Part shown: positions 17,801-62,800 of the stretch, one piece after another
Numbering within the stretch: position 1 is the stretch's first letter
How the letters are laid out: each line of letters opens with the position of its first letter
DNA from: a virus
Lineage: Duplodnaviria; Heunggongvirae; Uroviricota; Caudoviricetes
Reading direction: 5' to 3' (one strand)
DNA length: 63,899 nt
Virus record (IMG/VR): IMGVR_UViG_643348545_000007
Made by a program: the position numbers

Positions 17801-20800
17801 AAAAGCTCGCCGGTTGGTTTCCCGGTAGTTCCTAACCCTGTACGTCTCGCCACCCGATGATTAGGAACCTGACGGTGGTGATAGTTTAGAAACCACTCGA
17901 GGGCGTCATTATGACAACTCAAGTTTCTGTTGAAACACTCTCCACGATTACTTACAAGCAGATCCCCGTTATCACTACCGAACTTTTGGCGCACCTTTAC
18001 GGCACAGAAGCTATTCGTATTCGCCAGAATCACCACGAAAACAAAGGTCGTTTCATTGAGGAAAAACACTTCTTCAAACTTGAAGGTGAAACTTTACGTG
18101 AGTTCAAGCACAGAGTAGCTTTTAACTACTCTGTGAAAATTGCCCGTAACGTTCGCTCCCTCATCCTATGGACAGAACGCGGCGCAGCCCGTCATGCAAA
18201 AATGCTCGAAACCGATCGGGCGTGGGAAGTGTTCGAAAAACTGGAAGACTGCTATTTCAGCCAGGGAAAAACAACACAAACCGAACAGCAGTCGCAGATT
18301 CAGCCGCAATTCACAGACGAGGAAATTATCCTCCTCTGCTACATGCAACTCTGGATGGAAAAAGCCCGGGACCTTAGCAAGCAGCTGTACCCCATAATGA
18401 AAGAGCTGAACTCCTCATACACGAACAAGCTGTATGACATTGCGTTTGAGACCATCTACATGGTGACGAAGAACAGAGACGCGCTACTAAGGGAGGTAAC
18501 ACGTCTCGACATGTCAAGTTCCGTTATCCAGCGGGCCATGCCAATGCTGGAAAGCCTGCGGGCAAGACAATTTGAATTCTGAAACTAAAGGAGCTTCGGC
18601 TCCTTTTTTGTTGGGAAAATCCAGTGAGAGGGAATAATGAACCAGACTATCTTCCTCCGAAGTAAGCAGCAGCAACAATTCGCCATTAACGCCATCCTTG
18701 CAACAACTCTCGATAAAGACAAACCCGTTACGATCCGTATCACCGATTACAAGCGTAATCTCGCTCAAAATGCAAAATTTCACGCGATGGTCGCTGATAT
18801 ATCCCGCCAGGTTAAGTGGTGCGGCAGGTGGCTAAAACCAGAACAGTGGAAAGTTTTGTTAATCAGCGGTCATGCCGTGGCGACAAAACAGGAAGCTGAT
18901 GTTTTGCCAGGTCTTGAAGGTGAATACGTCAATATCCGCGAAAGCAGTGCGCAGATGAGCGTGAAGCGTATGGCAAGCCTGATTGAGTACACAACTTCCT
19001 GGGCTGTGGATCAGGGTGTCAGATTTACCGACAGGAGGTATGAATGAGACGACAGCGACGAAGCATCACCGATATCGTCTGTGAAAACTGCAATTACCTT
19101 CCAACCAAACGCTCCCGAAATAAACCCAGGCCAGTCCCCAAAGAATCTGATGTTAAAACCTTCAACTATACGGCTCACCTGTGGGATATCCGGTGGCTAA
19201 GGCGTCGAGCAAGATTTAATTGTCACTCCGGATAGCCTACTGCATGAGGAATAAGATGATGACAAACCTACGCAAAGAAGCGCGCGGCAGAGAATGCCAG
19301 GTACGGATTTATGGCGTATGCAATGGCAACCCTGAAACTACAGTTCTGGCGCATTACCGAATGGCTGGAATTTGCGGAACGGGAACAAAGCCAGATGATC
19401 TGTTGGCTGCATGGGCCTGTAGTGACTGCCATAATGAAATCGATCGCCGTACTCGCATTCTCGACAACAACGACGCCAGACTTTACCACCTGGAAGGCGT
19501 GATCAGGACGCAGGCGATACTGCTGAAGGAGGGGAAAATTAAGTCATGAATGAATATGAGTTTGTGCTTCCCTGGCCGCCGACGGTGAATACCTACTGGC
19601 GAAGACGGGGAAGCCAGTACTACATCAGCGATAAAGGCCAGAAATACCGAAAAGACGTACAGCAAATCATCCGGCAACTCAGATTAGACATTTTCACTAA
19701 ATCACGACTTCGCATCACAATTATTGCTGAACCACCAGATTCCCGCCGTCGCGACCTCGATAACATCCTGAAAGGTTTACTCGACTCTCTTATCCACGCC
19801 GGATTTGCGGAAGACGACGAGCAATTCGATGACATTCGCGTAATTCGCGGCGTGAAAGTGCCTGGCGGTAGAGTGGGGATAAAAATCACCGAACTGGAGA
19901 ACATATGAACGCCACAATTCAAACAATACCGGAATTGCTTATCCAGGCACGAGGCAATATGACTGAAGTTTCACGAAAACTGAACTGTAATCGTGCTACG
20001 GTCAGAAAATATGTCGGTGATAAAGAAGGCAAACGGCACGCCGTCGTCAACGGTGTCCTTATGGTTCATCGTGGATGGGATAAGGGGAAAGCTACTGATG
20101 CGTGATATTCAGCAGGTGCCTGAACGCATGGCTTTATTCAGGTCGTCTGGAAAAGCGCATGAGCAGCGTAATAGCGGAGTTCATGGCGAAGAGTATATGA
20201 ACAGATTATTCGAATGCTATATGAGACTGAAGCACGGAGATCGCTATGACCTGACATGTGATGCTGACGGCTTCTACTGCCGTGAAGTTGTGAAACGAAT
20301 GTTTGAAGTGTGGTGTCATTGTAAAGGATGGGGGCTGTGATGCGGCTAACCCCAGTATTCGGCATGGTTAACTTTATTAATGATGCTCATTTCCGCCGCA
20401 TATGGAGGCATCCGAAGAAAATCATTAACTCTCGTCAGAAAGCATGGGTTCACTACATGCTACAGGTATGGGGAAATGTTAACGCTGGTGATGATTCTCC
20501 TTGTGGTGCAATTAACGTTATTGGGCGACTGATGATTCGCAGTCAGTGGAGCGATGACAAAGCTAAGCAGATTGAGTCTGTTGTCATGCGTCTGTATGAA
20601 GAAGACGGACTACGTGGAGATGAACTCCATCAGAAAGCCCGAGAACTGGTCATCCCTCAGTCATCGGCAGGTAATATCATTGCTCTCGCCAAAGAATCCG
20701 ATGATGCTGCTTTCGTTGAACGTGTGATGGTTGAGACCTTTCATCGTGAAAGCCCTGTCCGTGATGTAGCTATTAGGCGATATTGCAATCGCGACAGCAC

Positions 20801-59800: not shown

Positions 59801-62800
59801 TAACTGTTCTTCTACCTAGTAACTGCCTATGAAAACCATCCACCACCAGGTAATGGCTTGTTTCTTCCGAAACAACAATTGGTTGAGTAAAACCGTCTTT
59901 TTCCAGAGATTGTTTCAGTAATTTTTTTTCGCTTGGGGCCATGACATTGGGATTATAATCGTTAGCGACAATTTCATCCGCTTTTACCCACAGCACACAG
60001 TCCACTGGTTCTTGAGCAAAGGGGCTGATCTCATGGAGTACGCAGCGGAGATGGTTCAGGGCCTGTATGGTTTTCTCTTCAGATTGTTCCTGACTGAAGT
60101 ACTGTCGAATCATCTTGCTCAGCACCTCCACCTCTGGTGTCACAGAATTCCCCATTCCTTCCTCCTTTCATTCATACGCTGCAGGTAACGTTCATAGTGC
60201 CGGGGTTTGTTGGGGCTGAAGGAGAGCGTTCGGCACCAGAAATCATTCTTTATGAGAGTCTTACAAATACGTCGCCAAGAGGGAACATCCCGGCAGCCCA
60301 GATCATTTTCCTGTTCATCCGGGATATCATCCGGGAATCCCCGGTTCTGATACCAGCGCAGGTAGACTGCTATCTTGTTGCGGTAGTGTTCAGCCGTTCT
60401 TTCCGGCATTACGTCCAGCAGGAAGAACGCATAGCTGCGCCAGGTATGATGGGATGGTTTTGACATCCGTTTACGCAGGGCAAAATAGGCCCCGCTTTCA
60501 TTGGCATAAAGAGCCCCACTGGCAGCACCAGATACTCGTTCACACATCCGTGCCCAAGTTTCTGGCTCCAGAACATGATAAAGCCATAGTCCCTTACGCT
60601 GTTCCGGGCCAAAAGGCTCACAGACACGCATATTACGTAGAGGAATGCCTGCACGGTACATCAAATCATACAGAGGATTGTAGATTGCACAGGTTTTAGC
60701 GTTATATACCCAGATATCGTTGGTTTTCCAGTCATACAGCGGATACATGGTGTAGTAAAAACCTTCAGGTGACGCCGTGGTCCAGGGTTTATCATCTGCA
60801 TATCTCAGTTTTCGTTGGGAAACCAGTCCCATAAATCTGTTAAGAGATTCATCCGCGCGGACTCCAGTCAGTATTGCCACGCTACATTGGTTACTTGCGA
60901 ACCAGGAAGAAAAAGCTGGGACAAATTCTTCAAAAGTCATGGCGTAGCGGTAAAAGGGGAAATACGCCATATCAGTAATAGCATCTTCCGGTGGCTGTCG
61001 AACCCACTCTACACCGGGCTCCCAGCATATCCACTCAGGCTGAAACTGCGAGACACCATTTACTGTCGTCAGGGGAAGTGCAACCCAGTAAAAGGTATCT
61101 GTTACATCTTGGTACATCATCCGCATCTTCTGTATATGATCAATGGTGCATTGATACTGGGCTTCCCAGTCAATGAACAATACAGAAAAACGACGTTTCT
61201 TCCTGTAGGCCACTTCGGCTACAAGATGGAAAAGTACAGTGGAATCTTTACCGCCAGAAAAAGATAAACATACAGAAGAGAATGTTTCAAACAACCATTC
61301 AATGCGGTGAATGGCTGCTGACAAAACATCTTCTCCAGTTCTGATTTTTGTTATAGTTACCGGCATACAATCTGATAAAAATAGCGAGGGTTTGCATTTT
61401 ACCTAGTAACGTTATGTAACTATTTTTTTGAATAAAGGCAATGAGATAATGATAAAAAATGTTTATCTAATGTACTGAGCTCTTCTCTTTATTGTATTAA
61501 CTCTTCGATTTCAGCGGCGTTGTCGTTCAGGCATGAAAAAAGGAGCCGAAGCTCCTTTGGTTTCAGAATTCAAATTGTCTTGCCCGCAGGCTTTTCAGCA
61601 TTGGCATGGCCCGCTGGATAACGGAACTTGACATGTCGAGACGTGTTACCTCCCTTAGTAGCGCGTCTCTGTTCTTCGTCACCATGTAGATAGTCTCAAA
61701 CGCAATGTCATACAGCTTGTTCGTGTATGAGGAGTTCAGCTCTTTCATTATGGGGTACAGCTGCTTGCTAAGGTCCTGGGCTTTTTCCATCCAGAGTTGC
61801 ATGTAGCAAAGGAGGATGATTTCCTCGGCGGTAAATTGTGGCTGTGATTCTGCTTGTACTGGCTGAATGTTGCGAAGTTTCTTTTCGCACTCGATGAAGT
61901 AGCGGCGGATCTGGCGGCCTTTTTCGTTTCGTTCAACCATCGCAAGCTCTTTGGCTGTGTCCAGGGTGAGGTGGTAGTCCTTGCGGCGGCGGCCTAGAGT
62001 TTTCGCCAAATTTGGCGAAAATAGAATGTAGTCTAAATTTTCTACGAATCCATACTCGTTTAGCCTGGCCCGTATCCAGTTAGAAAAATCTTTACCTACC
62101 TCTAAAAACCCATGCAAATCACGCGCGTTCACCAGAAGCGTAGGTTCATTTGAGATTGTACCTTCAAACACAGGGATGAGTTGAGTGGTCATGATGACCT
62201 CCTTTGGCTTTTTTCGAGAAATGCCACCACAAAATGTGGTGCCGGGAGGCTCGAAACGGCCCAAAAGATACCGCGGACTTATTCCCCTTGCGGGTGTTGT
62301 ATTCGTCGCCCTCCCGACATGGATCGGGGATGTGACCGCACATTGTGCCATCACTGAATGACAGGCATAAAAAATCCAACACTGACGGGGTTGGCTTAAT
62401 CCGCTTTTGGGAGGTTTTCGAGGTCTCGGCGCGGAGTATAGTCACTATTGGATGCTGTCGTCAACAGCGTGGTTACAATTCATTCCAAATGCGATAGTTT
62501 TTTATTTGCCATATTAAGCTATTGGAGACCCTGTATTTATCTGCAAGAACTGAATTTGGTACACTCATTTCATTAGCTCTTATAAATAGCACTTGCTCTT
62601 TAGTTAGTTTTGCTCGCCCATGTTTTTCATGACGTGCTTGGCGTTTTCGTTTCTGTCGATCAGCATTATTATCAAGGATTGTTCCTATTAGTAAATGCTT
62701 TGGATTACAACATGCAGGATTATCGCAAGAATGCCTGACAACCATGCCCGCAGGAATTTCTCCAATAAAAATTCGGTAAATTAACCTATGCGCGCCAGTT

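Follow-up and report, generated by a model that had tools for sequence, protein, structure and literature searches.

A C-terminal domain and terminator shared in inverted orientation by two antirepressor-type genes of a 933W-like prophage

In the Bro network of regulatory proteins (ORF6N, AntA, Bro-N, KilA-N, P22_AR_N/C and pRha), a DNA-binding-like N-terminal module is joined to an interchangeable C-terminal module. ORF6N, AntA, Bro-N and P22_AR_C have been grouped, after Iyer et al. 2002, into one domain-swapping network, and loci of this kind often carry C4 or isrK immunity RNAs (PMC10111431). Here, we describe two such genes in IMG/VR record IMGVR_UViG_643348545_000007 (Caudoviricetes; 63,899 nt, the whole of which is called the window below). 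Termed left and right ant, they lie about 43 kb apart on opposite strands and end in the same domain, stop codon and terminator.

Several described systems resemble parts of this arrangement. Phi24B Ant is, like left ant, a nin-region gene product of a 933W-like phage with a P22_AR_C-type C-terminus, and the Phi24B/P22 class of Ant proteins helps to relieve CI repression on induction (PMC3064807). In Phi24B, deletion of ant lowers pR' reporter activity after norfloxacin to ~27-56% of the wild-type level, and supplying ant on a plasmid brings it back; P22 Ant is reported to inactivate lambda CI as well (PMC3064807). The P1/P7 immI (c4-icd-ant), P4 CI/seqA and Gifsy-1 isrK-orf45-anrP loci share with the window's genes the order of promoter, target, antisense RNA, second target at the ribosome-binding site and antirepressor-like gene (PMC4825925). 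Known c4 systems have a constitutive promoter and a processed antisense RNA, and the action of these RNAs differs, being repression in P1 and activation for IsrK (PMC4825925). An RNA of a further family, sRNA-Xcc1, has been noted upstream of an ORF6N gene in APSE phages (PMC7313666).

Two other systems bear on the inverted arrangement itself. In the G segment of Mu and the C segment of P1 (Gin/Cin), inverted repeats likewise flank a block of phage late genes, the repeats being short recombinase sites (~26-34 bp) that serve tail-fiber switching by an adjacent serine invertase. In Salmonella, the inverted paralogues tufA and tufB exchange patches of sequence, and crossovers (inversions) between them are rare or counter-selected.

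The shared cassette and its two genes

Alignment by MAFFT of 18250-18650 (+) with the reverse complement of 61500-61900 gives a single ungapped, near-identical block with unrelated sequence on either side. This alignment, an ungapped register scan, a repeat search and BLASTN agree on two arms of 309 nt each, with no gaps and 299 of 309 positions identical (96.8%). The left arm (18301-18609, +) holds the last 94 codons of left ant, which encode its P22_AR_C domain, together with the stop codon and terminator; the right arm (61536-61844, -), separated from it by 42,926 nt, is the same cassette at the 3' end of right ant. An earlier note, made from the sequence by eye, had proposed an inverted duplication of C-terminal domain, stop and terminator 43 kb apart. 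That proposal stands, with its identity of ~95% slightly low and its right-arm coordinates, 61541-61850, displaced by 5-6 nt. Because the window has no other inverted repeat of 40 nt or more, a chance origin is not at issue.

Six of the 10 mismatches between the arms lie within the first 36 nt, and the longest perfectly identical tracts are 96 and 84 bp. Homology stops directly after the terminator hairpin, which in both arms has the form AAAGGAGC-UUCG-GCUCCUUU with a T-run after it (-14.3 and -14.2 kcal/mol). The intrinsic terminator of left ant (18587-18612, +), with an 8-bp stem, a UUCG loop and a T-run, lies inside the repeat; the hairpin of right ant (61533-61558, -) folds equivalently and was missed by the terminator scan because its T-run is partly absorbed into the stem.

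Left ant (17911-18582, +; 223 aa) combines an ORF6N domain (aa 12-98; 71.3 bits against a Pfam cut-off of 27.8) with P22_AR_C (aa 129-192; 31.4 bits against 22.4). Right ant (61563-62192, -; 209 aa), for which the ATG at 62192 with AAGGAGG ahead of it is a plausible start, combines AntA (aa 21-89; 92.9 bits against 27) with P22_AR_C (aa 117-178; 30.1 bits). Pfam thus agrees with the gene calls and the ORF6N-type and AntA-type labels of the earlier note, and BLASTP bears out the common C-terminus of ~95 aa that it had described: between the two proteins the last 97 residues alone align, 91 of them identical. For both proteins the best full-length match is PHROG 377, "anti-repressor Ant", and the first four codons (MTTQ) are also common to the two genes. 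Both have the N-terminal module and the swapped C-terminal module that typify the Bro network.

The N-terminal domains had been called unrelated. No cross-similarity between ORF6N and AntA was found by BLASTP or relaxed Pfam scans, to which extent the description is apt, but the N-termini of both proteins map to the same stretch of PHROG profiles 63 and 373. Because of this correspondence, and because both families are placed in the Bro network (PMC10111431), the sequence comparisons suggest that the two domains are probably distant relatives rather than unrelated.

The cassette is by no means confined to the window. The 309-bp segment is found in 49 phage records, mostly as one copy of ~90% identity (for example, 933W L0142), and at 261 sites in 188 of 5426 complete Escherichia coli genomes, where about 70 records hold at least two copies and the genes that bear it are annotated ORF6N, AntA/AntB, BRO or Ant. 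In the examples checked it is fused to ORF6N, AntA and Bro-N, and in alignment A3 the N-terminal domain is always joined at a conserved QFTxEEIILLCYMQ motif. That alignment was built from homologues of the 97-aa module, mostly contig-end fragments, which served the alignment but not a count of domain partners. Three P22_AR_C genes are present in phage phiSTEC1589, two of them a tandem of ORF6N and Bro-N type and the third at its right end, and in E. coli ES5 an Xcc1 leader (locus L013, 499-582) precedes an ORF6N gene that has the same cassette and adjoins ninB. From these combinations it follows that leader, N-terminal domain and C-terminal domain assort independently.

Nearly all database proteins that match the 97-aa module are labeled "partial" and end at contig edges; the 309-bp repeat, of which a genome often has at least two copies, evidently interrupts short-read assembly and gives rise to truncated Ant annotations. 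The second copy in the window could on such grounds be suspected of being a collapsed or duplicated repeat produced in its assembly. The two copies differ at 10 positions, however, their flanks are distinct and orthologously conserved, and the same two-copy layout recurs in a sequenced phage as well as in several genomes that were finished independently. The colinear complete genomes effectively refute an artefact, to which we assign a negligible probability.

Probable exchange between the two loci and the question of inversion

The feature is real and non-random, and it is ordinary, already understood phage mosaicism. At a probability of roughly 0.7, we read it as one mobile segment carried by two paralogous antirepressor-type genes of the Bro network, kept similar by non-crossover recombination and providing both with a shared effector domain. 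Under this interpretation the segment attached to the two genes would comprise the P22_AR_C domain, the stop codon and the intrinsic terminator. Its near-identity would come from gene conversion or patch recombination between the locus in the nin region and that at the right end, whether inside a single prophage or among co-resident relatives, with RecA or the Red system of the phage itself as the probable agent. That the arms are inverted would simply follow from the positions of the two genes.

Evidence for exchange comes from the variation within the cassette. Both copies were taken from six further genomes and phages, together with one right-end copy from phiSTEC1589, and with IMG/VR loci added, 45 copies were compared and 50 sites typed. 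Left and right copies within a genome differ at 8 to 28 positions (10 in the window). The right copy of the window has only 3-4 mismatches to the left copies of E. coli JNEC-KY204 (KY204), with whose prophage that of the window is colinear, and SW070917, against 14 to their right copies; for KY204 the counts are 3 and 14. The flanks of this same copy are, on both sides, 96-100% identical to the right locus of KY204. In a sliding comparison, repeat positions ~50-200 of the right copy are 100% identical to the left type and 90-92% to the right type. Over the 50 typed sites its haplotype is the commonest ORF6N/ninB haplotype save for a right-type site, 286, near the 3' edge, with two further singleton differences (positions 12 and 15) outside the typed sites. 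Several other haplotypes are left/right chimeras, and the four-gamete minimum requires at least six recombination events in 309 bp, or at least three when the two most divergent copies are removed.

Because left-type sequence is here bounded by right-locus flanks, a transfer from left type to right type has happened, in cis or in trans. Since the donor resembles the left copy of other strains more than that of the window itself, the exchange may be ancestral or may have involved a co-resident phage. The patchwork pattern, as read from the aligned copies, is the signature of non-crossover (gene-conversion-like) homologous exchange between the loci.

A different history would have each locus acquire the cassette separately by horizontal transfer, the similarity of the two copies then reflecting a recently spread allele with no locus-to-locus exchange. 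Lambdoid genomes are of course highly mosaic, the cassette circulates widely with many partners, and such a history would lead one to expect that the right copy is nearer to the left copies found in other strains than to the left copy of the window. Set against this are the nin-region type of the sequence at the right locus, with right-locus flanks on both sides, and the chimeric nature of several further haplotypes, so that we consider separate acquisition rather unlikely.

Recombination between the arms could also proceed by crossover, which would flip the intervening 43-kb nin-Q-lysis-morphogenesis block, either occasionally or as a selected switch that uncouples the late genes from pR. The earlier note had raised such a homologous inversion of the late region. 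In favor of it, the perfect tracts of 96 and 84 bp are longer than RecA or Red requires, and exo/bet homologues are encoded by the prophage, going by the annotation of its relative PhiR5_2. Synthetic inversion junctions were constructed, J1 joining the ORF6N side through the repeat to the ibrA side and J2 joining the AntA side through the repeat to the ninB side. Neither occurs as a contiguous match of at least 80% in any of the 5426 complete E. coli genomes, where matches end at the edge of the repeat, even with the ~70 records that hold two or more copies. The native inverted-repeat layout, with arms ~43 kb apart, was found in all six of the relatives inspected, and exact-pattern scans of IMG/VR returned 25 native left and 4 native right junctions, with one instance of J1 and none of J2.

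The single J1 case is a 4-kb metagenome contig, L043 (IMGVR_UViG_3300014804_000109), in which, over the stretch examined, 1-1116, a divergent ORF6N allele is linked by way of the repeat with the ibrA flank. This counts for inversion, but the contig derives from short reads and the join falls exactly within the 309-bp repeat, the classic place for a misassembly. The arrangement in L043 recurs in 0 of the 5426 complete E. coli genomes; misassembly across the repeat, a swap of N-terminal domains and true inversion all predict it alike and cannot be distinguished there. Moreover, the ORF map and the annotated colinear relatives contain no invertase gene, and there are no short recombinase sites. 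Inversion should place Q behind the terminator of right ant and detach ninB-Q from pR, which should cripple lytic growth; a deleterious isomer of this kind would explain why none is seen. Inversion is thus feasible on mechanistic grounds and might occur at low frequency in a population, but these genomes lend it no support, and we judge an inversion substrate or switch very unlikely.

RNA leaders, predicted function and prophage setting

Ahead of each of the two genes lie a separate predicted promoter and a separate predicted leader with a c4-type antisense RNA. Upstream of left ant, a promoter-like site (17634-17663, +; TTGACG-18-TATATT) is followed by an isrK/c4-a1b1 element (17657-17747, +) that contains the upstream targets TTAGGAAC (17695-17702) and GAAACC (17711-17716) and a terminator. 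A C4-family antisense RNA comes next (17773-17857, +), with single-stranded GGTTTC (17816-17821) and GTTCCTAA (17828-17835), and then the downstream targets (17861-17903, +), namely TTAGGAAC (17861-17868) and GAAACC (17889-17894), with the Shine-Dalgarno sequence GAGGG (17899-17903) just after. The Rfam matches stand in P1/P7-like order: isrK at 17670-17747 scores 69 bits, above its gathering threshold, and C4 (RF01695) 66 bits (gathering 45), whereas the c4-a1b1 motif (17657-17710) was found at a relaxed threshold with 44.2 bits, just below its gathering value of 46.7. The Rfam structure leaves the C4 words GGTTTC and GTTCCTAA unpaired, and they are complementary to TTAGGAAC...GAAACC, of which one copy lies inside the isrK element and one right before the Shine-Dalgarno sequence. 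A 27-codon open reading frame (ORF) within C4 (17778-17861) ends ~50 nt ahead of the ATG of left ant; no translationally coupled upstream ORF of the icd or orf45 type was found in the left leader.

The leader of right ant is organized in a comparable way. Its promoter-like site (62435-62464, -; TTGACG-18-TATACT) has a -35 region, TGTTGACGACAnCA, identical to that of the left module, the core common to both leaders being TGTTGACGACAnCA...TATAyT. The upstream targets (62404-62422, -) are CTCGAAA (62422-62416) and CCCAAAAG (62411-62404), and the downstream targets (62198-62218, -), CTCGAAA (62218-62212) and CCAAAGGA (62207-62200), overlap the Shine-Dalgarno sequence AAGGAGG. Between them lies an RNA of the sRNA-Xcc1 family (RF02221; 62233-62318, -; 74.5 bits, gathering 53), whose words CTTTTGGG (62267-62260) and TTTCGAG (62256-62250) show complementarity to the targets on either side, facing CTCGAAA...CCCAAAAG upstream and CTCGAAA...CCAAAGGA over the Shine-Dalgarno sequence. 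In both modules the bipartite targets are thus duplicated, one on each side of the small RNA (sRNA), and the words are rare in the window on both strands, with three occurrences of TTAGGAAC and two of CCCAAAAG, all accounted for by the targets and the sRNA itself. Pairing was judged from loop and junction words, the available homologues being too nearly identical to add covariation; RNAduplex energies over the whole length are uninformative because the program unfolds the sRNA.

The right Xcc1 module (62198-62464, -) and the left C4 module (17634-17903, +) therefore have a layout in common, consisting of promoter, bipartite target plus terminator, sRNA and a second target over the Shine-Dalgarno sequence. 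Rfam keeps Xcc1 outside the C4 clan; the layout suggests that Xcc1-type RNAs may be c4-class immunity RNAs of another specificity. Control by LexA, of the kind that governs antirepression in the Gifsy phages, was considered and set aside: the search returned three CTGTN8ACAG boxes, a count at chance level, and none is near either ant gene.

Taken as units, the two cassettes would each consist of a promoter, a bipartite target with terminator, a c4-type RNA, a second target over the ribosome-binding site, an N-terminal domain, the shared C-terminal domain and a terminator. They would differ in RNA specificity (C4 or Xcc1) and in N-terminal domain (ORF6N or AntA), while the promoter core, the initial four codons and the 3' segment would be common to both. 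In an AlphaFold2 model made with alignment A3, the C-terminal domain consists of three long helices (residues 10-39, 45-71 and 78-92; mean predicted local distance difference test score, pLDDT, 72). A Foldseek search of the PDB with this model returned nothing below E=0.6, the matches being generic antiparallel helical bundles, coiled-coil-like, and sequence searches with both proteins found no relatives of solved structure. The modeled fold fits a role in protein-protein interaction or oligomerization, and the domain could be the effector or oligomerization part common to both proteins. Two independently RNA-gated antirepressors would then have one target in common, most likely the lambda-type CI that is the repressor type present in the window, and so help induction, as Phi24B Ant does.

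The CI repressor of the window (11177-11890, -), which carries an S24 domain, is that of lambda, 99.2% identical to J02459 (phage lambda) and 100% to mEp234; lambda cI sits here within an otherwise 933W-like, short-tailed prophage. The cassette also accompanies other repressors, at least three CI types being found with it (lambda, 933W-type and TL-2011c-type), and is therefore not tied to one immunity specificity. On this ground we rejected the C-terminal domain as a strict determinant of CI specificity.

Several considerations weigh against the interpretation of an exchanged segment with a common effector function. The right copy is nearer to the left copy of another strain (3 mismatches) than to that of the window itself (10). 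The P22_AR_C matches are weak, at about 30 bits against a cut-off of 22.4, and the structural model of the domain is of moderate confidence. Binding of CI by either protein would follow from annotation transfer and the Phi24B precedent (PMC3064807), and the P22_AR_C variant of the experimentally studied Phi24B Ant is a different one. The module matches 79 phage records (tblastn, E<=1e-5), and P22 is absent from them.

A more elaborate proposal would make of the two genes a dual-input induction circuit, in which two heteroimmune c4-class RNA switches gate two antirepressors that converge on lambda CI through the shared C-terminal domain, possibly as heteromers. Selection would homogenize the 3' segments, and rare inversion would lock the prophage in a non-inducible state. 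We hold such a circuit to be unlikely.

As a whole, the window represents a complete prophage, apparently integrated at wrbA, with an FMN-reductase (wrbA-like) fragment (1-579) and a 444-aa integrase (576-1910) at the left edge. It is colinear with short-tailed 933W-like phages, the closest being PhiR5_2, POCJ13 and 75/02 Stx. Left ant lies in the nin region, flanked by ninB and by a Gp49/HTH (higBA-like) toxin-antitoxin pair (16964-17543, -) that diverges from the promoter of left ant. At the right end of the prophage, upstream of ibrA (PAPS_reduct plus DUF3440) and ibrB, stands right ant; a SocA/Panacea-domain protein (58898-59422, +) adjoins ibrB, and a 2787-aa ORF is found at 50384-58747 (+). 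Immediately upstream of the right ant promoter, a 145-aa HNH_3 (homing-endonuclease-like) ORF (62473-62910, -) stands where colinear relatives have a truncated antA/antB pseudogene, similarity to them stopping at ~62440. More speculatively, an HNH_3 endonuclease in this position could promote local recombination.

Elsewhere in the prophage, the stretch downstream of the Q region, where Shiga toxin (Stx) phages carry tRNAs and stx, holds two tandem matches to the STnc100 sRNA (21495-21688 and 21964-22172, +; 140 and 130 bits). Because ARAGORN finds no tRNA and there is no stx-sized ORF, the prophage looks stx-negative from its sequence. Three 49-nt direct repeats (12710-12758, 12801-12849 and 13579-13627, +; 63-100% identical) lie within and just upstream of the ORF for an O-like replication initiator (12880-13968) and may be origin-related or may reflect internal gene duplication.

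Comparison with described systems

These genes provide a worked example of how lambdoid antirepressor genes are built from at least three exchangeable pieces, the RNA leader, the N-terminal domain and the C-terminal domain with its terminator, and of how paralogues within a single prophage, or in co-resident ones, replace each other's sequence through recombination. In practice, different regulators are lumped together when annotation goes by the C-terminal domain alone. Should both proteins act on lambda-type CI, Stx-like prophages with several cassettes would gain RecA-independent routes to induction, a point that bears on the biology of toxin phages although the concept is not new.

The likeness to the Mu G and P1 C segments is limited, as the repeat is here a 309-bp coding sequence around a 43-kb block, with no invertase and with no isomers in complete genomes. 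Compared with the Ant proteins of Phi24B and P22, the module of the window represents a distinct P22_AR_C subfamily, with a weak Pfam score and no tblastn match to P22, and is joined to other N-terminal domains; P22 moreover uses Mnt/Arc/sar, whereas the genes of the window stand behind predicted c4-type RNAs. The leaders resemble those of P1/P7 immI and Gifsy-1 in general order but differ from them in that no coupled ORF like icd or orf45 is evident and in that the right module uses sRNA-Xcc1. In contrast to tufA and tufB, just a 309-bp 3' segment is shared by the two genes, and co-resident prophages may take part in the exchange. With the Bro network the correspondence is closest: its members often have C4 or isrK RNAs in their loci, the P22_AR_C cassette of the window is found on ORF6N, AntA and Bro-N partners, and there is no essential difference. 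Particular to the window is the presence of two members in one prophage with a near-identical, inverted cassette that includes the terminator and bears the traces of conversion.

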